Source: Bacteroidales bacterium
GTDB lineage: Bacteria; Bacteroidota; Bacteroidia; Bacteroidales; UBA12077
Direction of reading: 5' to 3'
Length of the DNA: 64,000 nt
NCBI GenBank assembly: GCA_016342685.1
Contig: JAEINU010000001.1
Span: 824,169 to 888,168 of the forward strand
Positions 4,510-42,502 of this stretch are shown here, in pieces (the stretch's first letter is position 1; each line of letters starts with the position of its first letter). The notes beneath the pieces were generated by a model that made no database searches, was not told where the DNA came from, and was given only the letters and a program-made list of their open reading frames with translations. The position numbers and the translations under genes are program-made.

Positions 4510-5262
4510 TTAATCCTTCTCGTATTTTTCTTGATGATATTCTTTTAAAGGATCAATATTCAAATATTTAGAAAGCCACTTAACACCAAGATAGAAAGGA
4601 ATGGTATCTAAAAGAGCCGAAGTCATTTTAAACATGTAGTTCGAAGCAATAAGCATGATCAAAAATGAAAATACGTGAGTGTCTGGATGTAATTCAATTG
4701 CTTTTGCACCATAGTAGGTGATAAGTACAACTGCAATAGAATCAATTAACTGACTTGTTAAAGTTGATACATTATTTCGTAACCACAAATGCTTTCCTTT
4801 TGTAAGTTTTTTAAGAAAATGGAAAATATGAACATCAACAAATTGTGCAGTCAAATATGCGATCATTGAAGAAGCTGTTGCTCCAAAAGTTAATTCTCTA
4901 ATTCTAAAAAAAGCGTCGCTATTCATTTGCGGACTTTCAGGTAATTTACCTGCAAACCATAAAATAAATAAAACCCAACCATTCATTAATAAACCAACCC
5001 AAACTACCATATTTGCTCTTCTTCTACCATATAACTCACTAATGAAATCGGTACATAAAAAAGTAATTGGATAGGGTAAAACACCTACGAAAACCATAAA
5101 TGGTACTCTTGTACCATTTACATTAAAAGACAAATCAATTAGTCGTGATAAGCCTAAGATATTTAACATGGCTAATGATCCAACAAATAATCCGGCAAGC
5201 AATATAAAAACGGCTTCTCTTCGGAATGTGTATTTATCTTCAGAACTTGTATTCGAGAACAT
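4510..5262 (-). CDS. yhhQ: Queuosine precursor transporter, YhhQ/VUT (DUF165) family
   Basis: Multi-TM protein; conserved stretch PYPITFLCTDFISELYG matches the YhhQ family core. Confidence 0.7.
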   Translation of the reverse strand: MFSNTSSEDKYTFRREAVFILLAGLFVGSLAMLNILGLSRLIDLSFNVNGTRVPFMVFVGVLPYPITFLCTDFISELYGRRRANMVVWVGLLMNGWVLFILWFAGKLPESPQMNSDAFFRIRELTFGATASSMIAYLTAQFVDVHIFHFLKKLTKGKHLWLRNNVSTLTSQLIDSIAVVLITYYGAKAIELHPDTHVFSFLIMLIASNYMFKMTSALLDTIPFYLGVKWLSKYLNIDPLKEYHQEKYEKD

Positions 5263-5577: not shown

Positions 5578-8500
5578 ATGAGGAAATACTTTTACTCTAT
5601 TTTTAATCTTGAAGATAACGAAGGTTTAAGTGTATTTTTATTCCTCACTCAATCAATATTTCTGGGAATATTTTATGGTGCTTTTGATGTTGGAGCACAT
5701 GCTTTGTTTTTAACTGTATATCCAGCTTCAATGATTCCTAAAGCCTATATTGTTTCAGGTATTGCTGGTATCATTTTAACATCCTTGTATGCACGAATAC
5801 AGAACCGATTGCCATTTTCAAAATTGGCAATTTTAAATTTGATTTTCATTTCTATCTCAACAGCTATCCTAAGATTGTTATTTCAATTTACTGAAAGCAA
5901 TTGGCTTATTTTTCTAATTTTTATAATGATGGGGCCATTAAATATTATTGCTTTGTTAGGATTTTGGGGTGCCGTTGGTCGAATATTTTCTTTGCGTCAG
6001 GGGAAAAGATTATTTGGATTAATTGATAGCGGGCAAATTTTTGGTGCAATACTCAGTACTTTTGCTATTCCTGTATTGGTAGCAGTTGGATTTCAACAAA
6101 AAAACTTATTGTTTTTAAGTTCTGTAAGTATTGTAGGTGCTTTAATTATGCAATTAATAATATCTGTAAAATTTAACTTAAATCAGGTAATTAGTAAGGC
6201 TACAAAAAAACAAAAAAGACTACCTGTATTGTTAAAAAATAAGTACATCTTATTTATGTCTGTTTTTGTTGTGATGTCGATGTTTACAGCGTTCTTTATT
6301 CAATATTCTTTTCTTTCTGTAACAAAGGAGAATTATCCCGATCACAATGATTTAACTGAGTTCTTGGGAGCATTTACCGGAAGTCTTTTATTGTTTACTT
6401 TCTTGTTTAAAACCTTTTTGTATAGTAAGCTAATGAAAGCTTATGGACTGAAAATAAGTATGATTATATCGCCATTTTTACTTGGAATTTTTACATTATT
6501 AGCTGTTGGTATTGGTTCGCTTTGGGGGTATACCTCAGCATCAGCAAGCTTTATCTTTTTCTTTTTAATAATATCGTTAAGTCGCCTTTTCTCAAAAGCA
6601 CTAAAAGATGGAGTTGAGTATCCTTCTTTTAAAATATTGTATCAATCTTTAAAAGTAGATATAAGGCATGATGTTCAGGCTTATGTTGATGGAACTATTA
6701 ACGAAATTGCAGCATTAGCATCAGGACTCCTTTTGGCAGTTCTTGGATTGTTTGAATTTTTCACTCTTATACATTTTTCGTATGCTTTACTTATTATTTT
6801 AGTTATTTGGTTTTTTATCGCAAGAAAACTTTATTTCGAATATAAAACAACACTTCAGGAATCGCTGGCAGAATTCAAAGTTAAAGAAGAAAGTGTAAAT
6901 GATTTTTCCGAATATATAACAGATAATCTTTGTAATGATTTATCTAAAGATCCAAAATTTATAACTGGTATTGAGTTTAATTCGAAAATACATCCACTGG
7001 AATTCGAGCAAAATATTGATCAGTTAATTAGCCATTCAAATTCACAAATTGAAGAATATGCTATTAGTAAAGTTTCAGATCTTAAGTTAATTGAAAAGTA
7101 TATTAATATAAATAGCTTAAAGGAAGTTCACATTGAAAATGAAAATCTGAAAGAGGTTATTCATCGAGCTCAGAAAACTATAGAAACACCAGGTAATACA
7201 GAATTAATAAAATTATCGAAAGCACGAAGCACCGACGAAAGAGTTTTGGCAGCTTTTTTAATTGGTAAATTTTATAACAAAGAGTTATTTGTTTATTTAA
7301 AAGCTTTAATAAGAGATAATCAATCAACTGTTAAAATTGCTACAATTAGATCTGCAACCAAATTACAATTAGAAAGTCTTTGTCCATATATAATTGATTA
7401 TTTAGATTCTGAAGATATATATTCTTATGCCTATGATTCCATTCTTTTGTTCAAACAAAAGGCCTTGAGTTATTTAGATCTAGTATTTTATAAGTCTGGA
7501 ACAAATCATAGAGTGTTGCTTCGAATTGTTAAGTTAATTGCAGAGATAGGAGGAAATGAAGCAAAAGAGCTCTTAGTTAAAAAACTTGATCATCCGAATG
7601 AAGAGATTCTAAACTTTATATTACTCGGATTGCAAAAGTGTAATTTTGAGGCTGATGAAAACAATATTAATCAAGTCCATCAAATAATTGAAAAGCATAT
7701 TGGTCTTATAGGATGGAATATTGCTGCAAAACAAACTTTGTCTGAATACGATATTTTTGAGGAACTTGAGACTGCATTTAATGAGGAGATAACAGCTAAC
7801 TTTGAAATGTTGTATTTACTTCTTTCGCTTGCTTACGACGCGCAATCTGTTCTACATGTAAAAGAAAATATTGAAAGTGGAACTTCAGAAGGAGCTAGTT
7901 ATGCATTAGAACTTCTTGATTTATTTGTGTCTGAAGAGATTAAACCAAAATTATTTCCAGTTGTTGAGGATATTTCTTTATTAGAAAAAATTAGATTATT
8001 ACAAGATTTTTATCCTATAAAAAAACTGGAAATAGAAGAATTACTATTAGATACAATTAATAGAGATATAAATTTTATAAGTCTTTGGACTAAAGCATGT
8101 GCTATAAAAGCGATTAAAAACTTAAAGAATTCAAAAGTAACAGATGATTTGGTTGCGCATTTATTTAATCCAAATCAGCTATTAAGACAATCTGCTGCCG
8201 TAGTAATATACGAGTTGGATAAAGAAAATTATTATTCAATAGAAAAACGATTAAGTGATACTTATAAAGAGGAACTTGAAGATACATTAGATGAGCGCGA
8301 GGGTTCTGAGAATCATTTGTTATTTGAGAAAACACAATTTTTGAAATCCATTGAGCATTTTGAAAATGTGCCAAGTAAATATTTGTTTTTATTGGCTGAT
8401 GTAATGACAGAGTATAAAACAGAGGATGAGAATTTTTCTTTTTATAATGATTTAGAACTAAACGATAAGCTATTGTTAATAAAAGGAGATAGTGTTAGTT

Positions 8501-8721
8501 TAAAAGATGAATCGGCAAGTACATTATTGTTGCCAAATAAATTATATGTGATTGACGATTTAAAGGTAAAATCAAATCATTTTACTTTTGAAAACACCAT
8601 GAATAGCACTGTTTATTTAATTGATAAAAAAGATTTAATGTATAATGTATTTGATTATTATGAGATTGAAGTTTGTGTATTAAAGTGGTTTAGTAATGAA
8701 CTTCAGGCTGAACACATTTAG
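5578..8721 (+). CDS. Large membrane protein: N-terminal MFS/ATP:ADP-translocase-like 11-12 TM domain, central HEAT/PBS-lyase-like repeats, C-terminal degenerate cNMP-binding-like domain
   Basis: About 420 aa of hydrophobic helices at the N-terminus. Roughly 450 aa of leucine-rich alpha-helical repeats. The terminal ~120 aa is a beta-rich module resembling CAP effector domains but lacking a clear phosphate-binding cassette. First gene of a tightly packed co-directional cluster. Confidence 0.5.
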   Translation: MRKYFYSIFNLEDNEGLSVFLFLTQSIFLGIFYGAFDVGAHALFLTVYPASMIPKAYIVSGIAGIILTSLYARIQNRLPFSKLAILNLIFISISTAILRLLFQFTESNWLIFLIFIMMGPLNIIALLGFWGAVGRIFSLRQGKRLFGLIDSGQIFGAILSTFAIPVLVAVGFQQKNLLFLSSVSIVGALIMQLIISVKFNLNQVISKATKKQKRLPVLLKNKYILFMSVFVVMSMFTAFFIQYSFLSVTKENYPDHNDLTEFLGAFTGSLLLFTFLFKTFLYSKLMKAYGLKISMIISPFLLGIFTLLAVGIGSLWGYTSASASFIFFFLIISLSRLFSKALKDGVEYPSFKILYQSLKVDIRHDVQAYVDGTINEIAALASGLLLAVLGLFEFFTLIHFSYALLIILVIWFFIARKLYFEYKTTLQESLAEFKVKEESVNDFSEYITDNLCNDLSKDPKFITGIEFNSKIHPLEFEQNIDQLISHSNSQIEEYAISKVSDLKLIEKYININSLKEVHIENENLKEVIHRAQKTIETPGNTELIKLSKARSTDERVLAAFLIGKFYNKELFVYLKALIRDNQSTVKIATIRSATKLQLESLCPYIIDYLDSEDIYSYAYDSILLFKQKALSYLDLVFYKSGTNHRVLLRIVKLIAEIGGNEAKELLVKKLDHPNEEILNFILLGLQKCNFEADENNINQVHQIIEKHIGLIGWNIAAKQTLSEYDIFEELETAFNEEITANFEMLYLLLSLAYDAQSVLHVKENIESGTSEGASYALELLDLFVSEEIKPKLFPVVEDISLLEKIRLLQDFYPIKKLEIEELLLDTINRDINFISLWTKACAIKAIKNLKNSKVTDDLVAHLFNPNQLLRQSAAVVIYELDKENYYSIEKRLSDTYKEELEDTLDEREGSENHLLFEKTQFLKSIEHFENVPSKYLFLLADVMTEYKTEDENFSFYNDLELNDKLLLIKGDSVSLKDESASTLLLPNKLYVIDDLKVKSNHFTFENTMNSTVYLIDKKDLMYNVFDYYEIEVCVLKWFSNELQAEHI

Positions 8722-8758: not shown

Positions 8759-10765
8759 ATGTTAACCAAACTTGTTACAAGAATAAAAAGATATTATATG
8801 CGAAAAACAACCATTTTTAAGCAACTAATTTTAAATGTAGTAATTCCAGCAGTTTCAGCTTTGCTTATACTGGGCGTATTTAATTATAATCAAACAAAAT
8901 CGAATATTGTAAATTCTATAAATACAAAGAATAAGATAATTTCTCAGGAAATTATTCACATAATGGAATTTCAGGACGTTGCTCTTGAGGTTATTGAGCA
9001 GAGTTTAAATCCTGTAATGCAAACCTATAGTAGTCAGCTAGTAAATAATTATTTCAGAAACACAGACAATATAGATTTTGCCGATCTAAACAAGATTAGA
9101 AGAGAGTTGGGAATGGATATGGATATGGAAGATATTTATATTATCAATAAGGAAGGAATCGTTGTAAATACCACTTTTGAAAAGGATTTAGGATTGAATA
9201 TATTTTCGTTTGGAGATGATCATAAGGAATTACTTCTGGATATTTTTAAAGAAGGAAAGTTTGTAAACGAAAGATTTACAGTCGAATCAAGTACAAAGCG
9301 CCTGAAGAAGTACACCTATCAAACAACATTAGATGGCGAATATATAATTGAATTGGGAATTTATTCTAGACGTGCCGACGACATTATTAATTTTATAAAA
9401 ACAACCGTTAATAAGCTATCAAAAGATCAACCATCAATTGTAGATGTTGATTTATTTATAAGTAAAGATTACCCAATATCATTAAATAAAGATATTAACT
9501 TAAGTGATGAAGAAATTGTTTTCATGAAGGAACGATTCGAGCAACAAGATTCGACTCAGGTTTTTAAGAAAAGAAACAAACAAAAATTATATTACACATA
9601 TCTGTATATTAAAAGGTCAAATACAGATTTATATGAAGGAGCAGTAGTTCGCATAATTGCAGATCGATCTGGCGAAGACAAATTATTAAGGCGTGAAATG
9701 TTAAAGTTTTTAGCCGTTTTTGGATTAACCCTTGTAGTAGTAGTAGTTTTACTGTACCGAAAAACGAGAGTAATAACACATCCAATTAAGAAACTGGTTG
9801 ATAAAGTAAATAGAGTTACAGATGGACATTTGAATGAGCGAGCAGAAGTAATTGGTAACAATGAGATAGCAACGCTTTCGCAAAAATTCAATTCGATGAT
9901 TGAAGAGTTGGAGAGCTATTACAATGAACTGGAACAAAAAGTAAAAGATAGAACAGCTGAGGTGGTTCAACAGAAAGAATTAATAGAAATTAAGAATAAG
10001 CATATTATGGATAGTATCCATTATGCAAAACGAATTCAGAATGCGATTTTACCTCCCGATACTTATGTTAAACAATTACTTCCAAAATCATTTATTCTAT
10101 ATAAGCCGAAAGATGTTGTTAGTGGTGATTTCTACTGGATGACAAAAAAGAATAATCTGGCAATTTACGCTGCGGTTGATTGTACTGGGCATGGTGTTCC
10201 TGGAGCATTTATGTCAATTGTAGGGCATAATCAATTAAATTATGCTGTTGATGTTAAGAAAGCGCGAAGTGCAAATGTTATTCTGGACTATTTAAATGAA
10301 GGTGTTGTGGAGACATTGCGAGAAAAAGGTCAAGTTGGTAAAATAGCAGTAAAAGATGGAATGGATTTAGCTCTTTGTATAATTGATTATAAAAACATGA
10401 AGCTTCAGTTTGCAGGAGCAAACAACCCATTATGTCTGGTTCGAAATAATGAAATGATTCAGATAAAGGGAAACAAGCAGGCTATTGGGGGAGGATTCGA
10501 TGATGAGCTGCCTAAATTCACAAATCATGAAATGGATTTACAAAAAGGTGATGTGATATACACATTCTCTGATGGATATCCAGATCAGTTTGGAGGGCAC
10601 GATGGACGTAAATTTATGGTTAAAAAGTTTAGAGAATTATTGTTAAAAATTCATAGTCATCCGATTGAAGAGCAGGAAAAAATATTAGAAGATATTTTGG
10701 AAGAATGGAGAGGCAAAGAGGAACAAGTGGATGATATATTGATTATTGGAGTAAAAATTGAATAA
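8759..10765 (+). CDS. Membrane-bound PP2C-type (SpoIIE family) serine phosphatase with extracytoplasmic sensor domain and HAMP linker
   Basis: TM1 (LILNVVIPAVSALLILGVF); ~270-aa periplasmic region; TM2 (LAVFGLTLVVVVVLLY); HAMP; coiled coil; PP2C motifs (SGDFYW, DCTGHGVPGAFMS, DGYPDQFGG). Confidence 0.8.
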   Translation: MLTKLVTRIKRYYMRKTTIFKQLILNVVIPAVSALLILGVFNYNQTKSNIVNSINTKNKIISQEIIHIMEFQDVALEVIEQSLNPVMQTYSSQLVNNYFRNTDNIDFADLNKIRRELGMDMDMEDIYIINKEGIVVNTTFEKDLGLNIFSFGDDHKELLLDIFKEGKFVNERFTVESSTKRLKKYTYQTTLDGEYIIELGIYSRRADDIINFIKTTVNKLSKDQPSIVDVDLFISKDYPISLNKDINLSDEEIVFMKERFEQQDSTQVFKKRNKQKLYYTYLYIKRSNTDLYEGAVVRIIADRSGEDKLLRREMLKFLAVFGLTLVVVVVLLYRKTRVITHPIKKLVDKVNRVTDGHLNERAEVIGNNEIATLSQKFNSMIEELESYYNELEQKVKDRTAEVVQQKELIEIKNKHIMDSIHYAKRIQNAILPPDTYVKQLLPKSFILYKPKDVVSGDFYWMTKKNNLAIYAAVDCTGHGVPGAFMSIVGHNQLNYAVDVKKARSANVILDYLNEGVVETLREKGQVGKIAVKDGMDLALCIIDYKNMKLQFAGANNPLCLVRNNEMIQIKGNKQAIGGGFDDELPKFTNHEMDLQKGDVIYTFSDGYPDQFGGHDGRKFMVKKFRELLLKIHSHPIEEQEKILEDILEEWRGKEEQVDDILIIGVKIE

Positions 10766-10767: not shown

Positions 10768-12141
10768 ATGACGGATAAAAATCTGGATGTTTTGTTTTAT
10801 GTTCCATCTAAAAAGGAAAATGTAGATGAGCCTGAAAAACAATGGATTAATAATTTGAAATATATCCTTGAAATTAGTCTAAATCAGGTTTTAAAACGAA
10901 AAGCGAATTGTAACTTAGCATATGAAAACGATCCCATTCAAAATTCTGAAATCTATATTCAATGCTTTTTAGGAACAAATTTTTCTAAAGAAAAAACAAT
11001 TCAGAGTATATATAAAAGCGAAGATTTAAATATCTATCATGTATTAATTAACACTAATTCACTTGAGTTTTCGAATGCATTAATCAACTTAAAAACATAT
11101 CGTTTTTATAATGATCAAACCAGTAAGATTCTTGATTTAACATTGAAGTTAGAAGATATTTTAAATACTACGTGGCTTAAAATATCTGATCTTTCGTTTG
11201 AAATAGGAAAGGTTCTAAGAAAAAGGGATAAAAAGATACCTACAAACAATAAAATATTTATTGCAGAAACGAGTCCTGATCAGACATTGAATAGAAATTA
11301 TTTAGTGCGAGAGTTTAAGCATCAGGGTTACACTGTAGTTCCTGAAGATCAACTTCCTAATGATATTGTAAGTTTTAGTGATCAGGTTCAGAATCTTATG
11401 GAAGAATCGCTTATATCGATACATCTAATTGGGAATAATTATGCTCCTTTGCTTAACAATATTGAGATTTCGAAAGTAGAGTTGCAAAATGATATTTTTA
11501 ATGAAGTTATTGTAAAACCTGAATCTTTAAAACGGAATTTGCAGAGATTAGTACTTATTCCTCCTGCTTTAAAACCAAAATCTGACAAGCAAAAAAAGTA
11601 TATTGATAGTTTTAAACTAAATATTGAACTTCAAAAAAATACAGAGATAATACAATCGCCACTCGAAGATTTTAAATCTATAATTCAGAAAAAAGTAGAT
11701 GGATTTTTTAACGAGAATACTAAGCAAAAAGACGTCTCTATAAACAAATCAAAAAAAAGAACCATTTATATTATTGGCAATGGTACAAATGTAAATGCTA
11801 TAAAGGGTTTGAAAGAAGTACTTAATGAAAAAGGGTTTGATTTTGCTGAAACTATAAATTCTAAAAATAAAATTGAATTAATTAAAGATCATCAAAGAAA
11901 TTTAACTCATTGTGACGGTGTAATTGTTTATTATTCATCAAAAAATGAACAATGGTTAAATAGCAAATTGAGCGACATTGTTAAATCTCCTGGTATTGGA
12001 AGAAACATTCCATTTTTACTAAAAGCTATTTTGATAGATGGATTGCAGGAGCCAAAAATAGAAATGAATATTCGAGATTTACTGATTGTTAATACAAATA
12101 AACCCGATTATCTGAATCATTTATTGGAAAAAATAAAATAA
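10768..12141 (+). CDS. Hypothetical protein with two predicted flavodoxin-fold TIR/SLOG-like modules
   Basis: Beta-alpha-beta patterns KIFIAETSPDQ..GYTVVPEDQ..ISIHLIG and KRTIYIIGNGT..GFDF..CDGVIVYYSS. Start codon is 2 bp after the phosphatase stop, 4 bp before the STAND gene. Domain assignment is tentative. Confidence 0.35.
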   Translation: MTDKNLDVLFYVPSKKENVDEPEKQWINNLKYILEISLNQVLKRKANCNLAYENDPIQNSEIYIQCFLGTNFSKEKTIQSIYKSEDLNIYHVLINTNSLEFSNALINLKTYRFYNDQTSKILDLTLKLEDILNTTWLKISDLSFEIGKVLRKRDKKIPTNNKIFIAETSPDQTLNRNYLVREFKHQGYTVVPEDQLPNDIVSFSDQVQNLMEESLISIHLIGNNYAPLLNNIEISKVELQNDIFNEVIVKPESLKRNLQRLVLIPPALKPKSDKQKKYIDSFKLNIELQKNTEIIQSPLEDFKSIIQKKVDGFFNENTKQKDVSINKSKKRTIYIIGNGTNVNAIKGLKEVLNEKGFDFAETINSKNKIELIKDHQRNLTHCDGVIVYYSSKNEQWLNSKLSDIVKSPGIGRNIPFLLKAILIDGLQEPKIEMNIRDLLIVNTNKPDYLNHLLEKIK

Positions 12142-12145: not shown

Positions 12146-15100
12146 ATGGCAGCTAGCAAAAATAAAAATATCAATGACTTAAATAACCCTTTCCCCGGTT
12201 TACGACCCTTTAAGGTCGAGGAAAGTCATTTGTTTTTTGGAAGAGAAGGTCAAAGTGAGGAAATATTAAATAAACTCTCCGACGAAAAGTTTGTTGCTGT
12301 TATCGGTGCATCTGGTAGTGGTAAATCTTCACTAATTTATTGTGGTTTGGTACCTGTATTATTTGGTGGGTTTGTTGGGGATGCAAATTCAACATGGAAA
12401 ATTATAGCTTCAAGACCTGGTAATTCTCCAATAGATAACCTTGCAAATGCAATTATTGGAAATTCAGAGAATGAAGATAACTCGGAAAACAATTTAATAA
12501 AGCAAAAGTTAAATGCTTCTATCTTACGAAGTAGTTCGAATGGTTTAGTAGAAGCTCTTGATCAAAATTACAATCTTGAAAAAGAAAATGTATTAATAAT
12601 AATTGATCAGTTTGAGGAACTGTTTAGATATAAATCGAGTAAAGGTGATCAATCAACATACAATGAATCGGAAGCTTTTGTAAAACTTTTAATCTCTGCA
12701 AATAAGGCAAAAGATGTTCCAGTTTACATTGTTTTAACGATGCGTTCTGATTTTATTGGCGAATGTTCTCAGTTTCATGAGTTAACTGAGTTAATAAATG
12801 AATCCAATTATTTAGTACCGCAAATGACGCGTGATGATTTTAAAAGCGCAATTGAAGGTCCTGTAGCAGTAGGCGGTGCAGAGATAGAAACACAATTAGT
12901 TCAGCAACTTTTAAATGAAGTAGGCGATAATCCCGATCAGCTTCCAATTTTGCAACATGCGCTAATGCGAACATGGAATTATTGGACAGAACATTCCGAC
13001 ACAGAGCAAGCAATTAGTATTTCGGATTATGCTGCAATTGGAAAAATGGAAAAAGCTTTGTCGGAACATGCGAATGAAGCATTTGATGAACTTAACGAAG
13101 ACGAAAAATTCATATGCGAAAGCATGTTTAAAACAATTACCGAAAAAGGTAATGATAATCGTGGTATTCGTCATCCTACAAGTATTAGTGATATTGCTAT
13201 AATTGCAAAAACTTCTACCGATAAGGTAAAGAAAGTTATAGATCCTTTTAGAGCAGCAGGAAGATCGTTTATTACACCATCGTTTGAAATAGAACTCGAA
13301 AATGATAGTATAATTGATTTATCGCATGAAAGTTTAATGCGTATCTGGAATAAACTACGAATTTGGGTTGAGGAGGAATGGAATGCAGTTCAAATGTATT
13401 CTCGATTATCAGAGGCATCGGAGATGTATCAACTTGGAAAAACTAGTTTATGGCGTCCGCCGGATTTACAATTAGCTTTAAATTGGAGAGATAAACAAAA
13501 GCCTACACTAGCTTGGGCTAAGAGATATAATCCTGCTTTTGAACGAGCAATGGTTTATTTAAAAACCAGCGATAAAGAGTTTAAAGCAGAAGAGGAAAAT
13601 AAGGTTAAGCTTCAGAAGAGACAACTTCGTCGTTCTAAGATATTTGCTATCGTATTGGGATCAGCTGCAATTATTGGAGTGGGTTTAACGATTTATTCAC
13701 AAATGCTTAAAGGAAGAGCCTTAAAACAAGAAAAAATAGCAACAGAGCAAAAGATAGAAGCGGATAAGCAAAAGGAAATTGCTGAAGAACAGACAATTAT
13801 CGCAAAAGAGAAGGAAAAGGAAGCCCTTGAACAGAAGGAAGAAGCGGAAAAACAAAAGTTAATTGCAGAGCAAAAGCAAAAAGAAGCAACACGGAATGCT
13901 GAGATTGCAGAAAGACAAACACAAATAGCAATACAACGGCAAGAAGAAGCAAATCAACAAAGAACTCTTGCAGAAAAGAATGCCGAAGAGGCAAGAAAAC
14001 AAACAGTGGAGGCAGAAAAGGCGCGGCAAGAAGCCTTAAGGAGAAGAATGCTGTCGATTTCGCAAAGTATGGCTGTTAAATCGCAACAAATATCCGACAA
14101 TACACAATTGAAGGCCTTGGTAGCGTATCAGTCTTATTTATTTAATAAAGATTATGATGGACCTAAGCATAACCCAGATGTGTATTTAGGTTTGTATTAT
14201 GCTTTAAAAGGATTAGAAGGTCAGTACTTTAATGCGCTCAATGGACATGAAGGATCTGTTATGGATATTGTTTTTGCACCCGAATCGAATGTCATGTATA
14301 GTACGGGTGGTGATGGAAAAATATTAAAATGGGATATTGGAAGTGATAATAAAAAGTTTGAGGTGATTGCTGAAAATCCATTCGTTCAAAGAGCGTTAGA
14401 AGTTACCAAAGATGGTAAATGGTTGATCTGTGCAACCGATCAAGCGAAGATATTATTGTTTAATCTGGAAAATAATGTTGAACAAAATCAAGAATTAATT
14501 GGGCATACTTCATTTGTAACAGGATTAGCGGTTGCTCCCGATAATTCATTCTTTATTTCATCGAGTAATGATAAGACAATTCGTAAATGGAATTTAAAAA
14601 CATTAGAAAGCGAAGTTCTTGTTACAAGCGATTCAAAAATAAATTCAATAGAAATATCTCCCGATTCAAAAAAAATTGTAGCAGGAACTCAAGATGGAAA
14701 AATTAGTATTTATGATTCTAATAACGAGAATTCTCCTATTGTTATTGAATCAAATTCAAAAAATGCAATATCATCAATATGTTATAATAAAAAAGGAGAC
14801 TGGATTGTTTCAGGTGATTCGAAAGGGAATGTTCAAGTTTGGGATGCAAATAATTATACTCAGATAAAAAATCTGCAAGGGCATAAATCAAGAATTTACG
14901 ATATTGCTTTTAACCCTAACGATTGTTTGCTTGCAACATCAAGTTTAGACGGTACCGTTCGGGTATGGGATTGTACAAATTTAAATAATCAGCCAATAGA
15001 GTTAAGAGATCATGAATCTTGGGTATTATCAATTTCTTTTACCCCAGACGGAAACAAATTAGTTACTTCTAGTAATAAAAAAGATAGAATCTTAATTTGG

Positions 15101-15238
15101 GATACTAAGCCAAATGCAATTGCAAGTAAAATCTTAAATAAATTAGAGCGTAATATGTCTGAAGATGAGTGGAATACTTATGTTGCCGAAGATATAGATT
15201 ATATCAAAACAATAGCTGAACAAATTAACACCAAATAA
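12146..15238 (+). CDS. Membrane-anchored STAND-class P-loop NTPase with coiled-coil stalk and C-terminal WD40 beta-propeller
   Basis: N-terminal PGLRPF..FFGRE motif followed by Walker A GASGSGKSS and Walker B IIIDQFEELF (AAA_16/NACHT-like, as in WD40/TPR-coupled STAND proteins). Single TM IFAIVLGSAAIIGVGLTIYS near residue 500. ~110-aa EKQK-rich coiled coil. At least 7 WD40 blades (GHEGSVMDIVF.., GHTSFVTGLAV.., GHKSRIYDIAF.. ending WD/WN). Confidence 0.75.
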   Translation: MAASKNKNINDLNNPFPGLRPFKVEESHLFFGREGQSEEILNKLSDEKFVAVIGASGSGKSSLIYCGLVPVLFGGFVGDANSTWKIIASRPGNSPIDNLANAIIGNSENEDNSENNLIKQKLNASILRSSSNGLVEALDQNYNLEKENVLIIIDQFEELFRYKSSKGDQSTYNESEAFVKLLISANKAKDVPVYIVLTMRSDFIGECSQFHELTELINESNYLVPQMTRDDFKSAIEGPVAVGGAEIETQLVQQLLNEVGDNPDQLPILQHALMRTWNYWTEHSDTEQAISISDYAAIGKMEKALSEHANEAFDELNEDEKFICESMFKTITEKGNDNRGIRHPTSISDIAIIAKTSTDKVKKVIDPFRAAGRSFITPSFEIELENDSIIDLSHESLMRIWNKLRIWVEEEWNAVQMYSRLSEASEMYQLGKTSLWRPPDLQLALNWRDKQKPTLAWAKRYNPAFERAMVYLKTSDKEFKAEEENKVKLQKRQLRRSKIFAIVLGSAAIIGVGLTIYSQMLKGRALKQEKIATEQKIEADKQKEIAEEQTIIAKEKEKEALEQKEEAEKQKLIAEQKQKEATRNAEIAERQTQIAIQRQEEANQQRTLAEKNAEEARKQTVEAEKARQEALRRRMLSISQSMAVKSQQISDNTQLKALVAYQSYLFNKDYDGPKHNPDVYLGLYYALKGLEGQYFNALNGHEGSVMDIVFAPESNVMYSTGGDGKILKWDIGSDNKKFEVIAENPFVQRALEVTKDGKWLICATDQAKILLFNLENNVEQNQELIGHTSFVTGLAVAPDNSFFISSSNDKTIRKWNLKTLESEVLVTSDSKINSIEISPDSKKIVAGTQDGKISIYDSNNENSPIVIESNSKNAISSICYNKKGDWIVSGDSKGNVQVWDANNYTQIKNLQGHKSRIYDIAFNPNDCLLATSSLDGTVRVWDCTNLNNQPIELRDHESWVLSISFTPDGNKLVTSSNKKDRILIWDTKPNAIASKILNKLERNMSEDEWNTYVAEDIDYIKTIAEQINTK

Positions 15239-15239: not shown

Positions 15240-16274
15240 ATGAATAGATCTAAATCTTATATATTATTATGTATCCTTATTTTAGCGGGATTCATATCTA
15301 ACGCTCAGCAAACAAATTGTGCATTGAAACTCGACGAAGCTGAAAATCTATATGAAATGGGTGTTTTAGATTCGATACCCGCAATGTTAAGATCATGTAT
15401 AGATGATGGATTTGAGAATGAGGAACTTGCGCGAGCATATAAATTGCTTATTAGAACATATCTATTTGAAGATTATCAGGAAATGGCTGAATTAACAATG
15501 ATGAAATTTCTGAAAAAATTTCCTGAATACGAAATCAAAGCGAATGATCCGATTGAGTTCACATATTTATATAAATCGTATAAAACAGTTCCCTTATATT
15601 CAATAGGTATAATCGGCGGTGTTAATAATTCTTTTATAAGAATTATTGAACCTTATAGCCTAGATAATGCAGAAGATTATTCAGGAGAGTATTCTGTTTT
15701 GGGAGTTGGCTATCAGTTTGGAATCCAGATAAAAAGATATATAAATGATGAGATTGAAATAAACTTGGATGCCTTATTTGTAAATAAGAAGTTTGAGTAT
15801 AATAATGAACAATTAGATTCAAAAGTAAATTATAAAGAGAGTCAATCTCATTTATCATTCCCAATTACTGGAACATATGATTTGGAATATAAAAATGTTA
15901 GACCATTTGTTAGATTTGGTTTTAGTATCGATTATTTGTTAGCGTCGACAGCAAGTGTAGAAAGGTCTTTTACAGGACCTACCTCATTGGAAGCCTTAAC
16001 AGGTCCAGATCTAGATGTTGTTGAGGATAGAAACCCTCTGGATTTTTCTTTACTATTCGGTGTTGGATTAAAATACAATGTAAAAAAGGGATATGTCATT
16101 TTTGATGCGCGATACAATTTAGGTTTAACCAATACTGTGAATAGCGAAAATAGATATGCAAATCCTGAGAAAACATGGTATTATAATTATGTTGATGATG
16201 ATTTTGCTATTAATAATGTATATGTTTCAATTGGATATGTTTATCCATTTTATAGAACCAGAAAACAAAAATAG
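15240..16274 (+). CDS. Outer-membrane beta-barrel protein with N-terminal TPR-like helical segment
   Basis: Signal peptide (ILILAGFISNAQQ); helical hairpin; then alternating-hydrophobic beta strands typical of the Bacteroidota OMP_b-brl family. Start is 1 bp after the STAND gene stop. Confidence 0.5.
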   Translation: MNRSKSYILLCILILAGFISNAQQTNCALKLDEAENLYEMGVLDSIPAMLRSCIDDGFENEELARAYKLLIRTYLFEDYQEMAELTMMKFLKKFPEYEIKANDPIEFTYLYKSYKTVPLYSIGIIGGVNNSFIRIIEPYSLDNAEDYSGEYSVLGVGYQFGIQIKRYINDEIEINLDALFVNKKFEYNNEQLDSKVNYKESQSHLSFPITGTYDLEYKNVRPFVRFGFSIDYLLASTASVERSFTGPTSLEALTGPDLDVVEDRNPLDFSLLFGVGLKYNVKKGYVIFDARYNLGLTNTVNSENRYANPEKTWYYNYVDDDFAINNVYVSIGYVYPFYRTRKQK

Positions 16275-16279
16275 AAGCC

Positions 16280-17473
16280 ATGAATAAATCAAAATATATA
16301 ATACTTTTAATATACATTTTAACCTGCTATGCATGTGATAATTTAGACATCAAGTCAGGTCAATCAGAGTCTTTTATAAAAATATTTGGTTCGTATAGTG
16401 ATGATTATGGTGTAGATATAAAGGAATACGATAATGGTTATTTGATATTAGCAACAGTAAGTCCTAATAATGAAAATACAACAGACATTGCTATTATTAA
16501 AACTGATAAATATGGAAATCAAACAAATATTGAAACAATAGAGAAAAGTGGAAATGATCGTGCTTCAAAACTATTAATAACAAATGATGGAGGTTTTGTT
16601 ATTTTGGGAACATGTGAAGATACTGTTAACAATAACAAAGATATCTATGCTGCTAAGTACACCTCTACTTTAGAAAAAGAATGGACTAAGTCTATTGGTA
16701 AGGTCAGTGAAAATGAGGAAGGAATTTCAATTGCTAAACTATCAGATGGGTATTTAATTGCTGGTAATTCGGACGAAGCCAATGTGGCCAATGGAAATCC
16801 AAGTGGTGTGCAAGATATTGTTTTAATAAAAATAAACGAATCTGGAGATACACAATGGATAAATAGTTTTGGAGGAGTTGCCAAAGATATTGCAGTAGAT
16901 GTAATTGTTACCGATAATGGATTTGTTATAATTGGAACAACAGCAAGTTTTAGTGAACACGGACAGGACAAAGAAAACATAATTGTTATTAAAACAAATT
17001 CGGAAGGAAACGAAACGGATAAGTTAACATATGGAGGTTCATTCGACGACAAAGGTATTGCACTTATAGAATCAGATGCAGGTTATATTCTTCTTGGAAC
17101 CAAAGAGATATTATCAGGAGGAAACTCAGATATTTATTTAGTGTATTTAGGAAATGATATATATGATATTATTGATGAAAAAACATATGGCAGTTCAGGG
17201 GCAAACAATATTGGATCAGCTTTATATTATACAGGTAATAACCTTGTAGTTGCAGGAAGTAATGAAGAAGGAGGTGTAACTTCTGCCTATTTCTTAAAAC
17301 TAGATATTGAAGGAAATATTCTTATTGAAAATACTTTTGGTGGTTACGATGCACAAGTAATAAATGCTATTGAAAAGACAAGCGATGGTGGTTATATTAT
17401 GGTAGGTGTTAGTGGTTTCGGAGGAAATAATCAAATATGCTTATTAAAAGTAAGCTCTGAAGGGGAATTGTAA
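16280..17473 (+). CDS. Beta-propeller lipoprotein with ~50-aa degenerate blade repeats
   Basis: Lipoprotein signal (LTCYACDN). Repeated motifs DGGFVILGT / DGYLIAGNS / DNGFVIIGTT / DAGYILLGTK / DGGYIMVGVS. Confidence 0.5.
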   Translation: MNKSKYIILLIYILTCYACDNLDIKSGQSESFIKIFGSYSDDYGVDIKEYDNGYLILATVSPNNENTTDIAIIKTDKYGNQTNIETIEKSGNDRASKLLITNDGGFVILGTCEDTVNNNKDIYAAKYTSTLEKEWTKSIGKVSENEEGISIAKLSDGYLIAGNSDEANVANGNPSGVQDIVLIKINESGDTQWINSFGGVAKDIAVDVIVTDNGFVIIGTTASFSEHGQDKENIIVIKTNSEGNETDKLTYGGSFDDKGIALIESDAGYILLGTKEILSGGNSDIYLVYLGNDIYDIIDEKTYGSSGANNIGSALYYTGNNLVVAGSNEEGGVTSAYFLKLDIEGNILIENTFGGYDAQVINAIEKTSDGGYIMVGVSGFGGNNQICLLKVSSEGEL

Positions 17474-17516
17474 TTTCTTATATGTTGTTATTATTGGAAA
17501 TGAAAAGTAAAAAGCT

Positions 17517-20500
17517 ATGAAAAAGAGATATCAAATATTCTATATATTATTGTTTGTACTAATATCCAATCTGGGATTTGCACAATTAACTATAGTTAAT
17601 GCACTAGCTGTTGATGGCGATTCAAATGGATTTTATGGAACAGTGGAGATAGAATTTTCTACTGGAGTTAACGATGCTGAAATGCAAACAAGTGCATTGC
17701 CGCGAGACGATTGGGAGTTTTCTGAAGACCCAGAATTTACAACTTTTATTAGACCTAATAGCTTTAGTACAGAAGTTTTTGATATCGCAGTGGCAAATGT
17801 AGCAAATGATAAATATATTCGATTAACATTTCCATCTGAATTTTCTTCGAGTACTGGAACAATTTATTATAGATATATAAATGGTAATCTAGGTTCAGAT
17901 GATGTAACAGATTTTACTACAGGAACAGATGTGTTAGCTGATTTTGCAATTAAAAGTGCCACTGATGGTGCACCGCCTGTTATTTCTGGCGTTGTTTCAA
18001 ATGCAACAGATGCTGGAGTTTTAAAAGTTGGTGAATCGATTGTATTTACCGTCGATTTTGAAGATACTACTAATGATCCTAATTTAACAATACTACCTGC
18101 TCAATATAATAGTGAAGATTTAAACTGGATTACATCAAATGGTGGAGATACTTATACTGGAACGTATACTGTTACAGAAGGAAATGCAGATCAAACCACG
18201 GAATTACAATTAACAGGAGTAACAGCTACAGATGAGTATGGCAATGTGAGTGCATCTTTTAACGGAACTGATGTAGATAAAACGATTGATGCAAATACAC
18301 CTACTATTTCTTCAGTAACATCTGATGCAACTGCTGCTGACACATTAATTGTTGGAGAAACGATTACATTTACTGTTGATACAGAAACAGGACTTACAAT
18401 ATTACCCTTACAGTATAATGGACAAAACTTAAATTGGACAGCTATTAGTGGTGGAGATACCTATCAGGGTATATATACAGTAATGGAAGGTGATCAAGAT
18501 AGAATAACACCATTGCAGTTAACAGGAGTAACAGCTGAAGATGCTGCTGGGAATATTAGCAATACTGAAGATGGTAGTGATGTAGTAAAATCTATCGATG
18601 CAAATACACCATCGATAGTGACAGTTAAATCTGATGCAACAGCAGCTGGAATTTTAAAAGTTGGTGATAAAATAACTTTTACAATTGATGTTGCCACTCC
18701 AGATGGGAACTTAAGTGTAAATCCTTCCAATTATAATGGAGAAACCTTAAGTTGGTCTACGAGTGATGGAGGTGATTCATACATTGGAATATACACTGTA
18801 GTGGATAATGGTGTGGATCAGACTTCAGATTTGCAACTAACAGGAGTAACTTTAACAGATGCTGCAGGTAATGTTAGTAGTTCCGTTGATGGTGTTGATA
18901 TAGAGAAAACAATAGATTCAAATATACCTACTATTTCTTCAGTAACCTCCGATGCAACTGCTGCTGACACATTAATTGTTGGAGAAACGATTACGTTTAC
19001 CGTTGATGTTGTTGATACAGAAACAGGACTTACAATATTACCCTTACAGTATAATGGACAAAACTTAAATTGGACTGACATCAGTAGTGGTGATACTTAT
19101 CAGGGTATATATACCGTAATGGAAGGTGATCAGGATAGAATAACACCATTGCAGTTAACGGGAGTAACAGCTGAAGATGCTGCTGGGAATATTAGCAATA
19201 CTGAAGATGGTAGTGATGTAGTAAAATTAATCGATGCAAATACACCATCGATAGTGACAGTTAAATCTGATGCAACAGAAGCTGGGATTTTAAAAGTCGG
19301 TGATAAAATAACCTTTACAATTGATGTCGCTACTCCAGATGGGAACTTAAGTGTAAATCCTTCCAATTATAATGGAGAAACCTTAAGTTGGTCTACGAGT
19401 GATGGAGGTGATTCATACATTGGAATATACACTGTAGTGGATAATGGTGTGGATCAGACTTCAGATTTGCAACTAACAGGAGTAACTTTAACAGATGCTG
19501 CAGGTAATGTTAGTAGTTCCTTTGATGGTGTTGATATAGTGAAAACAATAGATTCAAATATACCTACTATTTCTTCAGTAACATCTGATGCAACTGCTGC
19601 TGATACATTAATTGTTGGAGAAACAATTACATTTACTGTTGATGTTGAAGATACAGAAACAGGACTTACAATATTACCCTTACAGTATAATGGACAAAAC
19701 TTAAATTGGACTGAGGTTAGTAGTGGTGATACCTATCGGGGTATATATACAGTAATGGAAGGTGATCAAGATAAAATAACACCATTGCAGTTAACAGGAG
19801 TAACAGCTGAAGATGCTGCTGGGAATATTAGCAACACTGAAGATGGTAGTGATGTAGTAAAATCTATCGATGCAAATACACCATCGATAGTGACAGTAAC
19901 ATCTGATGCAACCTTACTAGGAGTTCTAAAAGTTGGAGATAAAATTACATTTACTATAGATGTGGTTACTTCTGATGGAAACCTAACAGTTAATCCTACA
20001 AGCTATAATGGCAGAGCTTTAAATTGGTTTACAGATGATGGAGGCAGCACTTATACAGGAATATACAATGTTACAGAAGGAGATCCAGATCAATCTTCAG
20101 CTTTGCCTTTTACAGGAGTGACCTTAACTGATGTAGCAGGTAATGTAAGTGCAATATATAGTGCAAGTGATGTTGTAAAGACGATTGATGCGAATTCTCC
20201 ATTTATAAATAATTTTGTTGTACCTCAAATTAATATGACAATAGGAAACACTTATACAGCCACGATAAGTGTTAGTTCAGATCCTGATACTTATACTCTT
20301 ACTTCTGGTGAACTATCTGGATTTACGTTACATTCTTTAACAAAAGATGCTGATGATTCTTATTCGGTTGATTTTACTATTACCGATTTAGGATACGACA
20401 TATTAAGTGATAATTCATATTTGATTTCTAATTTGGTGATGTCAGATGCCTCTGGTAATATTTCAAATACTTATTCAAGTTCAATAAGTCAAATAAATGA

Positions 20501-23500
20501 TCCTATTTATACAATTTCTCCTTCGGCAAAAGTTTCAGGAAATTATGATATTTGTGATAAAGATTCAGCAACACTTTTATTTCAGTTAACAGGTAATTCA
20601 CCTTGGGATATTGAGCTAGATACTGGAGTAGGAATAACCACTATTTCAAGTATAAATGCCTCGCCTTATATTTATAAAGTACAAGCGAATGATTTAAATA
20701 ATTTGGTTGATCCTGATACTGCAATATATAAAATTACACAGGTTACAGATGTAAATGGGATTATTGTCAGTGTAGGTTCACCAATCGATAGTGCTACGGT
20801 ATTTGCTTATAAATTACCTGTAGTTGATATTACATATCCTGCGGGAGATCAAACATATAATATAAGTGCAAGTGAAGATACTTTAGTTGGAAATCCTCTT
20901 AATGGGATTTTTACTGGAGCAGGAATTGTATCCTCAAATAACACATTTCATCCTTCATCAGCAGGTCTTGGAGAGCATAATATAGAATATACTTATACAG
21001 ACCCAACCTCAGGATGTTCAAATTTAGACTCAGTAGAGTTAACCGTTATAGAATCAGCAGCAGAAATTGTTTTTCAAAATAACGATACATGGTGGTGTGA
21101 TTATGAAACATCGTTTACTTTAACAGGAGCTGTAGTCGGGAAACCGTCAATAGTTGGAACTTTTTCTTTAGATAAAGATGGAGGCGCAATTAGCTCGACA
21201 GCTGATAATGCTGCCATAATTGATATTAGTTTATTAGTTAGCGGGGGGTCTTACATTGTTAGTTATAGTTATTTTGATGGTGTTCCAATTACATTCATAA
21301 AAAGTTTTACTATTGAATCTGTAAATACAGATATTGGTATTCCAGTTATTAATGATATGTGTGAAGATTATGATACAGTATTTGTAAATGCTTATAATCT
21401 TGCTCCATTAGGAGGTAGTGGTACTTTTACCTTTTCAGGCAGTAGTAGTGACTATTTTATAAATGACCCTAACAATAATAAACTTTATTTTTATCCTGAT
21501 TCGATTGCTCCCGGGGATTATAATTTGAAATATTACTACACAACTCCAAATGGATGTAATAGCGTTGAAACATCACGAGATTTTAAAGTAAATGCCTTAC
21601 CAATTGTTGATATTGTAATGGATAATCTTTATAATATTGAGGGTGGAGTTGAAATTATTTCTGGAACTCCAAATACACCAGCAGGTATATTCTCACCTAG
21701 TTTCATGATTGACAATAGTAACGGAACAGCGAACTTTAACCCATCTATAGTGGGTTTAGGTATTGATACTGCATATTATACTTATACAGATGTTAATGGT
21801 TGTGTTAATCAAGATACCGCAATATTTGAAGTTGATAAAGCAAAAGGACAATTCTATGGATTAGATAAGTTTGATTCTAAAAATCAATATTGTTATTTTA
21901 ATAGTTTATCCGATACAATTAGTGTAATTCCTTTAAATGGGAGTGGTTTTCCAGGTTCATTTTATATTGATAATATATTATTTACTAATAATGTTGGTAA
22001 TGATAGTATAGCATTTTCACCTTCAGATATAATTTCAGGAAACCATGATTTGAGATTTACATATACCAGAGATGGAGTTGAATTTAATCTCGATACAGTC
22101 TTTAATATTGATTCCATTGGGAGTTTAAGTGTTGTTGGACTTGATAGTGAATATTGTCAAGATGATGATAGAAGCATTAATCTTACGGGGATTTCAGATG
22201 GCGCTGGATCAGGTTTAAGTATTTTTGGAGGGGATGGTATTACTGATGTAAATGGAATATTTAAACCAGCTGATGCTAATATAGGAACAAATACGATCTC
22301 ATACACATTTACAAGAGATGATTCTGGGTGCCAAAAGAGTGTTAGTGTAAATAGCCTAATAAATAAAGTGCCAGATATCGGATTTATTCTTGAAAAGACT
22401 TGTATTTCTAGCATTCAAGATTCTGTTTTATTTACTTCAGATACTTTATCATCTGATAATGTGATTAACTGGAATTGGTCTGTAACAGCACTTGGAAATA
22501 GCAGATTAAGTAATGAAATCAATCCTAAATTTTCGTTAACAAAGCAAGAGAAAAACTTTATTTCATTAACTGTTGAAACAGATAAAGCGTGTTCTTCTTC
22601 TCTAGATAGTAGTATTTTTATAGGTTCTGTTGTAGATATAGATTTCTCTTGGGATAAGGAATGCTTTGGCGAAACAGTTACATTCAAGGTTTTAGAAAAA
22701 ACGGATGAGCTAGGGGTCGACAGTGTTCGATGGAATTTTGGAGGAGATGGTTTTTCCGATTTAACAGATATTTATAATCCGCAATATACATATGATGTTC
22801 ATGGAGGGTATGATGTTACATACGAAGAGTTTACAAAATCTTGTGGACTTATTTCAGAAACCCTAAAGATAAATATTCGTCCTTCCATTAGTTTAAGTTC
22901 TGGGGCATATTTCGAAGATTTTGAAGAAGAATCAGATGTGACTGGATGGGCTGTTGATATTTTAGAAAGTACTTCGAACTCATCATGGGAATGGGGTGTT
23001 CCGAATGGAACGCTTATCAATACAGCAGCAGATGGAACTAGTGCGTTTGTTACAAATTTGGATGGGAATTATGCAAATGACGAGAAATCTATTATTTCAA
23101 GTCCTTGTTTTGATTTGTCGGGACTTGAACGACCAATGATATCGTTTGATTTTATTTCTGATCTTCAAGAAGATAGAGATGGAGTTGTAATTGAATATGC
23201 TGTTGATAAAGAAAACTGGAAGATATTAGGATTTGCAGATCAAGGTGTTGATTGGTTTAATACAAACACAAATTACGATGCTATTTTAGGTTCTTCTAGA
23301 GCTTGGACTGGCGATGGCGAAGGTGAATCATTTTCAAGTGAGGATGTAGAATGGAGAAAAGCGAAATATTGGCTCGAAGATGTAGTTGGAGAAGCAGGAG
23401 TAAGGTTTAGGTTTACTCTGGGAACTGATGATGCCGGAGTGAATGAAGGTTTTGGATTTGATAATTTGCGAATTGGTGATAGAAACAGAATGGTATTATT

Positions 23501-28373: not shown

Positions 28374-28405
28374 TTTCTCATTTTTTATACTAAAATAACT
28401 AAAAA

Positions 28406-28972
28406 TTACATCATTTCAGATTTTTTATTTTGAGAACATCTATCAATAACAATAGCAATCCTTTTTTCTCTAGTTTCTATTCGTTTAGCATTTGTTACCC
28501 AGTTTATGTATTGGTTCTGATATGATTTAGCGAAATTCGAAAAGTTCATCCATGCTTTTTCATCTGCTTTTAATGCTTTTTCCAAATAACTTGGTAATTC
28601 AACATCTTTTTGAGTTGTATATGCTTTTTCCCACTGACCATTCTTTTTGGCAATATCAACTTGTTCCATTCCAGCCTTTGTCATTTTATTTTCACTTATC
28701 AGTTTTTTAACCCGATTCTTATTTATAAGTGACCACATGCTTTTAGCTTTTCTTGGAGTGTATTTTTGCATATATGTTTCCTTATCAATACTTTTTACGG
28801 TACTATCAATCCATCCATAACATAAAGCTTCTTCAACGGCATCGTTGTAAGAGACAGTTTCCTTTTTCGTGTGTTTTTTGAAATAGATGAGCCAAATAAT
28901 ATTGGTTGATTTATAATTTTGTTCTAACCAAGCCCTCCACTCATCTCTATTTTTACAGTATATTGTTTCCAC
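28406..28972 (-). CDS. YdeI/OmpD-associated (bacteriocin-protection) family protein
   Basis: Conserved N-terminus W..WL..N......IWL.YFKK and EEALCYGWIDS motif; 188 aa. Confidence 0.65.
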   Translation of the reverse strand: METIYCKNRDEWRAWLEQNYKSTNIIWLIYFKKHTKKETVSYNDAVEEALCYGWIDSTVKSIDKETYMQKYTPRKAKSMWSLINKNRVKKLISENKMTKAGMEQVDIAKKNGQWEKAYTTQKDVELPSYLEKALKADEKAWMNFSNFAKSYQNQYINWVTNAKRIETREKRIAIVIDRCSQNKKSEMM

Positions 28973-42474: not shown

Positions 42475-42502
42475 ATAAGGGTAGGTTTTTTTAGTTTGTA
42501 GA

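Follow-up and report, generated by a model that had tools for sequence, protein, structure and literature searches.

A nucleotide-transporter-like carrier fused to a HEAT solenoid and a cassette-less CNB fold heads a conserved operon in Bacteroidota

Results

A fusion gene at the head of a gene cluster

The stretch of DNA analysed here, called the window throughout, comprises 64,000 nucleotides (nt) of contig JAEINU010000001.1 of a Bacteroidales bacterium and has a G+C content of about 30%. On its forward strand lies a gene for an inner-membrane protein of 1047 amino acids (aa), an NTT-HEAT-cNBD fusion in which an NTT-type carrier is joined to a cytoplasmic HEAT solenoid and to an end with the fold of cyclic-nucleotide-binding (CNB) domains, but without their phosphate-binding cassette (Table 1). 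The gene heads a cluster of co-directional genes, as had been stated in an earlier note made from the sequence of the window, and its upstream neighbour is divergent. Across Bacteroidota this cluster is inherited as a unit, in which the fusion gene is followed by genes for a HAMP-PP2C phosphatase, a triple TIR/DUF4062-like protein, an nSTAND1-WD40 protein, an outer-membrane barrel, a lipoprotein and then usually a giant protein with a type IX secretion system (T9SS) sorting domain.

Table 1. Position of the fusion gene, its parts and its neighbours in the window (TM, transmembrane)
Feature	Position (nt)	Strand	Remarks
NTT-HEAT-CNB-like fusion gene, whole	5578..8721	+	1047 aa plus stop, ATG start; AlphaFold2 model pLDDT 77.9, pTM 0.64
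12-TM NTT/TLC-type MFS domain	5578..6873	+	aa 1-432; profile, AlphaFold model, Foldseek; topology from sequence
Poorly conserved helical linker and first solenoid turns	6874..7197	+	aa 433-540; 34% mean column identity
HEAT-type alpha-solenoid, about a dozen hairpins	6904..8298	+	aa 443-907; Pfam, profile, model
CNB (CAP-effector) fold domain	8299..8718	+	aa 908-1047; 37% mean column identity
Phosphate-binding cassette position	8542..8586	+	aa 989-1003; LYVIDDLKVKSNHFT versus PKG FGEAAL....RSAT
Membrane HAMP-PP2C (SpoIIE) phosphatase with periplasmic domain	8759..10765	+	C-terminal half SiaA-like, below family cut-off
457-aa protein with three tandem TIR/DUF4062-like domains	10768..12141	+	middle domain keeps S235-x-x-[E/D]238
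nSTAND1 NTPase with WD40 propeller	12146..15238	+	operon partner
OMP_b-brl_2 outer-membrane barrel	15240..16274	+	operon partner
397-aa protein with lipoprotein-like signal sequence and weak SBBP beta-propeller match	16280..17473	+	operon partner
Vut_1/YhhQ-family transporter, divergent upstream neighbour	4510..5262	-	adjoins the NTT-like gene in 48 of 65 related loci

The open reading frame is intact over its 1047 codons, with exactly the boundaries, strand and length given in the earlier note. At about 30% G+C stop codons are frequent, and a frame of this length is therefore not expected by chance. M1, N10, E12 and E15 are kept across the homologues in the alignment, so that the start codon is called correctly. 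An identical protein (P0001) is present in a Bacteroidales metagenome-assembled genome (MAG), where it is named 'hypothetical protein JEY96_03360'. The number of homologues exceeds 550, and many of these are full length (about 1040-1065 aa), with identities between 37 and 84%. A profile search of 1.84 billion cluster representatives gave 23,376 matches at E <=1e-3 and 2,789 at E <=1e-30, the latter being representatives of 50%-identity clusters. Nearly all of the best 150 cluster matches were about 1050 aa long, with some shorter fragments among them.

When the protein was scanned by itself, HEAT_2 was the sole significant Pfam match; TLC and cNMP_binding were not seen, and the NCBIfam scan gave no match. 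Among 30 aligned homologues, HEAT_2 was matched by all 30, MFS_1 by 15, cNMP_binding (PF00027) by 10 and TLC (PF03219) by 7 (best E 2.3e-9). The NTT and CNB assignments rest on the family profile together with the structure model, not on the Pfam scan of the window protein itself. Two profiles were searched against all PDB sequences, one (A1) derived from the alignment of the 30 homologues and the other (A2) from the N-terminal 445 aa only. Conservation is highest in the TM domain, with a mean column identity of 70%, and amounts to 53-60% in the HEAT part; the values of the CNB domain and the linker are given in Table 1.

The tripartite organisation proposed in the earlier note (transporter, HEAT repeats and a CNB-like domain) was borne out by family profiles, Pfam matches of homologues, the AlphaFold2 model and Foldseek. 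The protein is not a generic transporter of the major facilitator superfamily (MFS) with an unrelated C-terminal extension, since the NTT, HEAT and CNB parts are all supported by profiles or structure. In the profiles and the model the domains follow each other in the order NTT, HEAT and cNBD within a single polypeptide, as in the fusion clade described by Major et al. 2017.

The membrane domain resembles NTT carriers but lacks residues of the ATP site

The model contains 12 TM helices over aa 16-432. On the window protein alone, the MFS_1 match remained below the threshold (E 0.3). With profile A2, only two sequences of the whole PDB were matched, the NTT ATP/ADP translocators 9j3n and 9j3j (E 2e-12), and profile A1 matched plastid and chlamydial ATP/ADP translocators at E 1.5e-9. 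When the model was compared to the PDB with Foldseek, the top five matches were AtNTT1/CpNTT1 entries (E 9.5e-9 to 4e-6, target TM-score up to 0.72), and generic MFS transporters (NorA and others) ranked behind them (E 1.6e-5 or worse). The fold is that of a 12-TM MFS-type protein nearest to the solved NTTs, and the choice between TLC/Npt1 and generic MFS, which the earlier note had left to profile searches, falls to the NTTs, in the case of the sequence profiles at the level of the family only.

Basic residues are concentrated in the N-terminus and in the even-numbered loops, for example at aa 198-222 (KFNLNQVISKATKKQKRLPVLLKNK). Read from the sequence, this places both termini, and hence the HEAT/CNB tail, in the cytoplasm. 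The NTT signature FWG...GKRLFGL lies at aa 129-148. The first NTT loop motif, FWGFANEIT..EAKRFYALFG, is aligned with FWGAVGRIFSLRQGKRLFGLID of the window protein, and the second, MAYIPLD...K.KGKAAID, with ILYQSLK..IRHDVQAYVDG. About 80 positions of the 432-aa domain are invariant, among them Q25, S26, N87, N122, Q192, D371, N375 and E376, and the conserved polar residues within the membrane tend to be acidic (D37, D371 and E376). Because conservation peaks in the TM domain, which has kept the NTT loop motifs together with many invariant polar intramembrane residues, we infer that this domain is still a working ligand-binding MFS module.

Four charged TM residues of AtNTT1 (K155, E245, E385 and K527), reportedly defined by mutagenesis by Trentmann and co-workers in 2000, are needed for ATP/ADP exchange. 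K527 corresponds to PamNTT1 K446, a residue that every ATP/ADP NTT retains and that binds the gamma-phosphate (PMC2606016). Three of the four (E245, E385 and K527) are absent from the window protein, and K155 lies beyond the aligned region. In the HMMER alignment the position of E245 is occupied by the invariant pair G119-P120 of the window family and that of E385 by Q242/Y243, and no acidic residue is present in either helix. The position of K527, which belongs to the motif GKSGG, coincides with a four-residue deletion. TM11 of the window family (DGTINEIAALASGLLLAVLG) contains no Lys or Arg and has the invariant pair N375-E376 there instead. All positions were read off the HMMER alignment or obtained by counting from the motifs beside them, and the offset of 84 between chain and precursor numbering was verified on E245 and the GKSGG lysine.

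As the charged residues for adenine-nucleotide exchange are gone, the substrate of the carrier domain is probably not ATP/ADP. The JGI name 'AAA family ATP:ADP antiporter', carried by several homologues, is therefore to be used with caution and is probably over-specific. It is very improbable that the domain has lost all ligand function and acts as a passive anchor tethering the HEAT scaffold to the inner membrane. The missing substrate residues of canonical NTTs would suit such an anchor, as would the typical use of HEAT repeats as scaffolds, but in an anchor of 432 aa some 80 positions would not have stayed invariant among sequences whose overall identity is as low as 37%, and the invariant set includes the MFS/NTT loop motifs needed for rocker-switch movement.

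The cytoplasmic tail combines a HEAT solenoid with a CNB fold that has lost its cassette

The HEAT_2 (PF13646) match on the window protein, for which the earlier note had suggested a profile search, covers aa 543-613 (nt 7204-7416) and lies above the curated cut-off (E 3.4e-9; 37.3 bits versus 27.7). Profile A1 matched alphaRep/HEAT structures over positions 545-695 at E 1e-21, and in the model the helical hairpins form an alpha-solenoid of about 465 aa with a pLDDT of about 90. The conserved core of the solenoid lies at aa 741-800.

PKG CNB domains were matched by profile A1 over positions 910-1052 (E 1.7e-13; 4e-7 for single-domain chains). According to DSSP, the C-terminal domain of the model begins with two helices, continues with the strands of a beta-barrel and ends in two long helices (aB/aC). 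A short helix at 992-995 sits precisely at the place of the cassette helix. A CNB fold is thus seen in the family profile, in the Pfam matches of homologues and in the topology of the model.

The phosphate-binding cassette G-E-x-A-L...R-[ST]-A was not found in the window protein: aa 989-1002 read LYVIDDLKVKSNHF, and neither Gly-Glu nor Arg-Ser/Thr-Ala occurs at aa 989-1003. The motif G-E...R-[ST]-A is likewise missing from all 30 aligned homologues, and the PKG cassette FGEAAL....RSAT aligns to variable columns of the family. A scan of 247 full-length relatives with a loose cassette pattern gave 12 matches, only two of which were clearly canonical, namely P0312 (GEMAVLNAEPRNA; Pfam cNMP_binding 52.8 bits) and P0266 (GEMAVLSSEPRTA). 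Both proteins keep an Asp at the E385-equivalent position, and P0312 also keeps a Lys at the position of N375. Their genes (locus L084 for P0312, L085/L086 for P0266) lie outside the operon in unrelated neighbourhoods; that of P0266 directly follows a gene for a 2545-aa non-ribosomal peptide synthetase and precedes a saccharopine-dehydrogenase-like gene and a pilMNO-secretin cluster.

Since, among the relatives scanned, a clearly canonical cassette is found only in P0312 and P0266, which are encoded outside the operon, the clade that holds the window protein has lost the cassette as a derived trait, and the word 'degenerate', which the earlier note had applied to this domain, was well chosen. 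The HEAT/CNB-like tail presumably no longer senses cAMP or cGMP. We also considered whether a decayed cassette always accompanies the operon, and this holds only in part: P0058 at locus L034 is encoded without the operon, yet its cassette is decayed. The HEAT core at aa 741-800 was considered as an operon-specific docking patch and rejected as such, as P0312 and P0266 keep 14 of its 18 conserved columns.

The fusion gene belongs to a conserved operon

The gaps between the fusion gene and the six genes that follow it measure 37, 2, 4, 1, 5 and 43 nt. No terminator was found between the first two genes in a terminator scan. A sigma-70 promoter scan, whose coverage does not extend to Bacteroidetes promoters, gave fewer sites than were found in shuffled sequences.

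The gene order was compared across loci from one genome per GTDB species, relatives being found in 232 species, and the best 80 loci were analysed. All of these came from Bacteroidota MAGs, one of them labelled Thiohalospira. In this 'Thiohalospira sp.' (Gammaproteobacteria) contig (L010), the order hemerythrin, FMN-reductase, Vut_1, NTT and PP2C is kept with 59-82% identity to the window, and the contig is probably mis-binned. Three homologue loci (61, 55 and 40% identity) had an identical gene order. When the neighbour proteins of the window were searched against the loci by tblastn, the PP2C gene was found directly downstream of the NTT-like gene in 61 of the 62 loci whose downstream DNA measures 1.5 kb or more, and PP2C, STAND and barrel genes were all present in 44 of the 46 loci with at least 8.5 kb. 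The triple TIR/DUF4062-like protein and the lipoprotein are usual companions. The 62nd locus (L034), from a Bacteroidia groundwater MAG, has kept the Vut_1-NTT pair and lacks the rest of the operon. Two other loci (L046 and L049) have no room for the 457-aa TIR-like gene, yet keep those for PP2C, STAND, barrel and lipoprotein. The divergence from the window proteins (percent identity, 45 loci) is correlated between NTT and PP2C and between NTT and STAND, with r = 0.96 in each case. Together with the conservation of gene order, this indicates that the genes are inherited as a unit.

The C-terminal 360 aa of the HAMP-PP2C protein match the SiaA model NF038263 at E 3e-76, with 257 bits versus a cut-off of 700 bits, and the operon contains no SiaB/C/D-like partner, kinase or STAS protein. 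As judged by eye from the sequence, the phosphatase appears to have a periplasmic sensor domain of its own, of about 270 aa, between two TM helices.

The 457-aa protein itself has no Pfam match, and among 29 homologue sequences DUF4062 was matched by 17 and TIR_2 by 7. In its model (pLDDT 82), three flavodoxin/TIR-like domains follow one another in tandem, and Foldseek gave weak but consistent matches to plant NLR TIR domains. The middle domain keeps the residues G222...Y225...S235-x-x-[E/D]238, and position 238 is acidic throughout (E in 20 and D in 9 of the 29 sequences). By comparison with the DUF4062 consensus, position 238 would correspond to the catalytic Glu of DUF4062/NIR NADases. DUF4062/NIR proteins are NADases with a conserved catalytic Glu (two 2026 preprints). 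Taken together, the 457-aa protein and the nSTAND1-WD40 protein look as if the DUF4062-STAND-repeat architecture known from Avs proteins and human TEP1 had been split in two, and the WD40 part of the nSTAND1 protein is also matched by the Pfam family Beta-prop_TEP1_2nd. The giant protein at the end of the operon, encoded by the sixth of the genes that follow, measures 2303 aa in the window, 2094 aa in L001 and 3638 aa in L003. With the barrel, the likely beta-propeller lipoprotein and the T9SS protein (together at 15240-24428, +), the gene set spans the inner membrane, the cytoplasm, the outer membrane and the cell surface.

The fusion protein could form the membrane arm of a system for immunity or abortive infection akin to NLRs. 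In this case, nSTAND1-WD40 would detect the invader, the TIR/DUF4062-like protein would either break down NAD+ or produce a nucleotide signal, and the NTT-HEAT-CNB-like protein would be the effector or the receiver of that signal. This would agree with the role of DUF4062/NIR as the NADase effector of Avs/STAND defence proteins, with the acidic residue kept at the putative catalytic position and with the use of CNB domains as signal receivers in Pycsar effectors, of which PycTIR (8jsk) was among the matches of profile A1. However, a search of PADLOC-DB 2.0 with the six operon proteins gave no meaningful match, the only matches being spurious ones over short stretches (E 5e-4 or worse). In contrast to mobile defence islands, the locus has a conserved syntenic setting among housekeeping genes, and its divergence follows vertical descent. 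Proteins of the outer membrane and the cell surface are encoded in the operon as well, and the two loci without the TIR-like gene keep the remainder. We consider a defence role improbable.

The Vut_1 gene upstream of the NTT-like gene is divergent (60-89% identity) or lies on the same strand (e.g. L003, L034, L036, L069 and L071). The Vut_1/YhhQ family comprises transporters of queuosine precursors, and the adjacency may hint at the class of substrate. An Rfam scan of the 315-nt intergenic region between the two genes, in which a preQ1 riboswitch was considered, gave nothing at E up to 1.

This neighbour bears on the possibility that the protein is an autonomously regulated transporter for some metabolite related to nucleotides (NAD+ or one of its derivatives, a base or nucleoside, or a precursor of queuosine would be examples), with the tail as an intramolecular gate that might be likened to the CNB domains of SLC9C1 or of cyclic-nucleotide-gated channels, and with a metabolic rather than a signalling link to the operon. 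Besides the frequent adjacency of Vut_1, the strong conservation of the TM domain would fit such a transporter. So would that of the HEAT core, which does not depend on the presence of the operon and points to an intramolecular role. Relatives with an intact cassette exist, so that ligand-gated transport is likely the ancestral state. Moreover, some NTTs, such as PamNTT4 and Npt1, transport NAD+ (cited in PMC5381601), and the operon encodes a protein related to the NADases. On the other hand, the residues with which NTTs bind polyanionic nucleotides are missing and the conserved polar residues in the membrane lean towards the acidic side. No part of the protein is less conserved than the CNB-like ligand pocket, which would be surprising if a conserved ligand did the gating, and the operon contains no other metabolic enzymes. 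We regard an autonomous transporter as possible but rather unlikely.

Paralogous genes elsewhere in the window

Four paralogous methyl-accepting chemotaxis proteins of 665-690 aa are encoded close together on one strand (40402-51900, +). Their C-terminal HAMP and signalling halves are 54-69% identical, and the sensor halves are of different kinds, with PDC and HBM found in the two proteins scanned. Four clustered proteins of this type are an unusual complement for a Bacteroidales genome. At 26289-31153 (-) lie two adjacent prolyl-oligopeptidase (S9) paralogues of 694 aa each with 67% identity. The paralogues of about 670-690 aa in the window were considered as copies of the PP2C protein, which was rejected: they are the chemotaxis proteins and peptidases, unrelated to the operon.

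Discussion

The conservation of the operon couples a transporter homologue genetically to signal-transduction proteins, as in trigger transporters. The reading that we favour, with a probability of roughly 0.4, is that the carrier binds, and perhaps moves, a ligand other than ATP, and that its state is passed on through the HEAT/CNB-like tail to the PP2C, TIR-like and STAND proteins encoded alongside. The ligand occupancy or conformation of the NTT-type carrier would then be the input state, which the tail would couple to the cytoplasmic signalling proteins of the operon. The role of PP2C would be to reset a phosphorylation state, with the STAND/TIR-like pair acting downstream. Such an arrangement would make the protein a 'trigger transporter' or co-sensor, with a logic comparable to that of UhpC acting on UhpB.

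The earlier note had proposed that the protein could act as a transceptor that starts a phosphatase/STAND cascade. The link between these genes is upheld by the conserved gene order and the correlated divergence, but the notion of a start was not supported as such, as the phosphatase apparently has its own periplasmic sensor, so that the NTT-like protein need not be the input. This point also weighs against a relay from the carrier to the signalling proteins, and several others do so as well. The operon encodes no kinase or other recognisable phospho-substrate. The conservation of the TM domain suits a plain transporter equally well, and the HEAT core, being conserved in relatives outside the operon, is not an operon-specific docking patch. 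The homologue at L034, which lacks the operon, has a decayed cassette too. The mapping of AtNTT1 residues is a sequence-profile alignment at about 17% identity and not a structural superposition. Finally, we found no experiment on any NTT-HEAT protein, and the later literature that we searched reports no function.

A more far-reaching idea, which we regard as rather improbable, is that the fusion protein is the membrane component of an NLR-like signalling system that environmental Bacteroidales carry fixed in the chromosome. Here, nSTAND1-WD40 would activate the TIR/DUF4062-like protein as an NADase, a nucleotide derived from NAD+ would be read by the re-tuned CNB-like pocket, the NTT-like carrier would be gated or reversed, and HAMP-PP2C would reset the system. 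If true, this would be the first function assigned to the orphan NTT-HEAT-cNBD family and would define a new kind of nucleotide-gated MFS effector that links envelope or surface sensing to NAD+ signalling.

The architecture of the protein was already known. As far as the literature searched shows, its link to the operon, the decayed cassette and the missing residues of the ATP site are new. The eLife papers defining nSTAND1 make no mention of the operon, MFS proteins, HAMP or translocases. To a specialist the protein itself is no surprise. However, NTT-HEAT(-cNBD) proteins are widespread and none has an assigned function, and the conserved operon of Bacteroidales offers a concrete lead that makes the question of the family's function directly testable.

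Comparison with known systems

NTT-HEAT and NTT-HEAT-cNBD fusions form one monophyletic and widespread bacterial clade that was also passed to oomycetes (Major et al. 2017, Genome Biol Evol 9:480, PMC5381601). These authors discussed fusions in cyanobacteria, chlamydiae (including Chlamydia trachomatis), deltaproteobacteria and oomycetes, listed 43 Bacteroidetes NTT sequences in their table 1, noted that no fusion member had been characterised and speculated that the binding of cAMP tunes the uptake of ATP (PMC5381601). The window protein is likened to these fusions by its domain order, and it shares with them the length of about 1000 aa and the occurrence in free-living bacteria. In contrast to them, the Bacteroidota clade studied here has no cassette and is locked in a PP2C/TIR-like/nSTAND1 operon that is absent from that paper.

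With the canonical NTT/TLC antiporters (AtNTT1 and Chlamydia/Protochlamydia NTT1; PDB 9j3j-9j3o; PF03219) the window protein shares the 12-TM MFS-type fold. They are its best structural match and the only sequence-profile match of its TM domain in the PDB, and the loop motifs FWG...(A/G)KR(F/L)(Y/F).L(F/I) and PLD/SLK...D are common to both. This family is TCDB 2.A.12. The window protein differs from its members by an identity of only about 17%, by the loss of E245, E385 and K527 and by a cytoplasmic tail of 600 aa. Moreover, its host is free-living, whereas the hosts of canonical NTTs are energy parasites or plastids.

UhpC is an MFS transporter homologue that is encoded beside the membrane signalling enzyme UhpB and acts with it as a 'trigger transporter'. 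It has no HEAT/CNB tail, and its partner is a histidine kinase rather than a PP2C or STAND protein, so that the likeness is one of logic only. SLC9C1, which was among the Foldseek matches of the model, HCN/CNG channels and MloK1 likewise carry a C-terminal cytoplasmic CNB fold on a membrane transport domain. These proteins keep a functional cassette and bind cAMP or cGMP, whereas the window protein has no cassette and, unlike them, a long HEAT solenoid between its membrane domain and its CNB fold.

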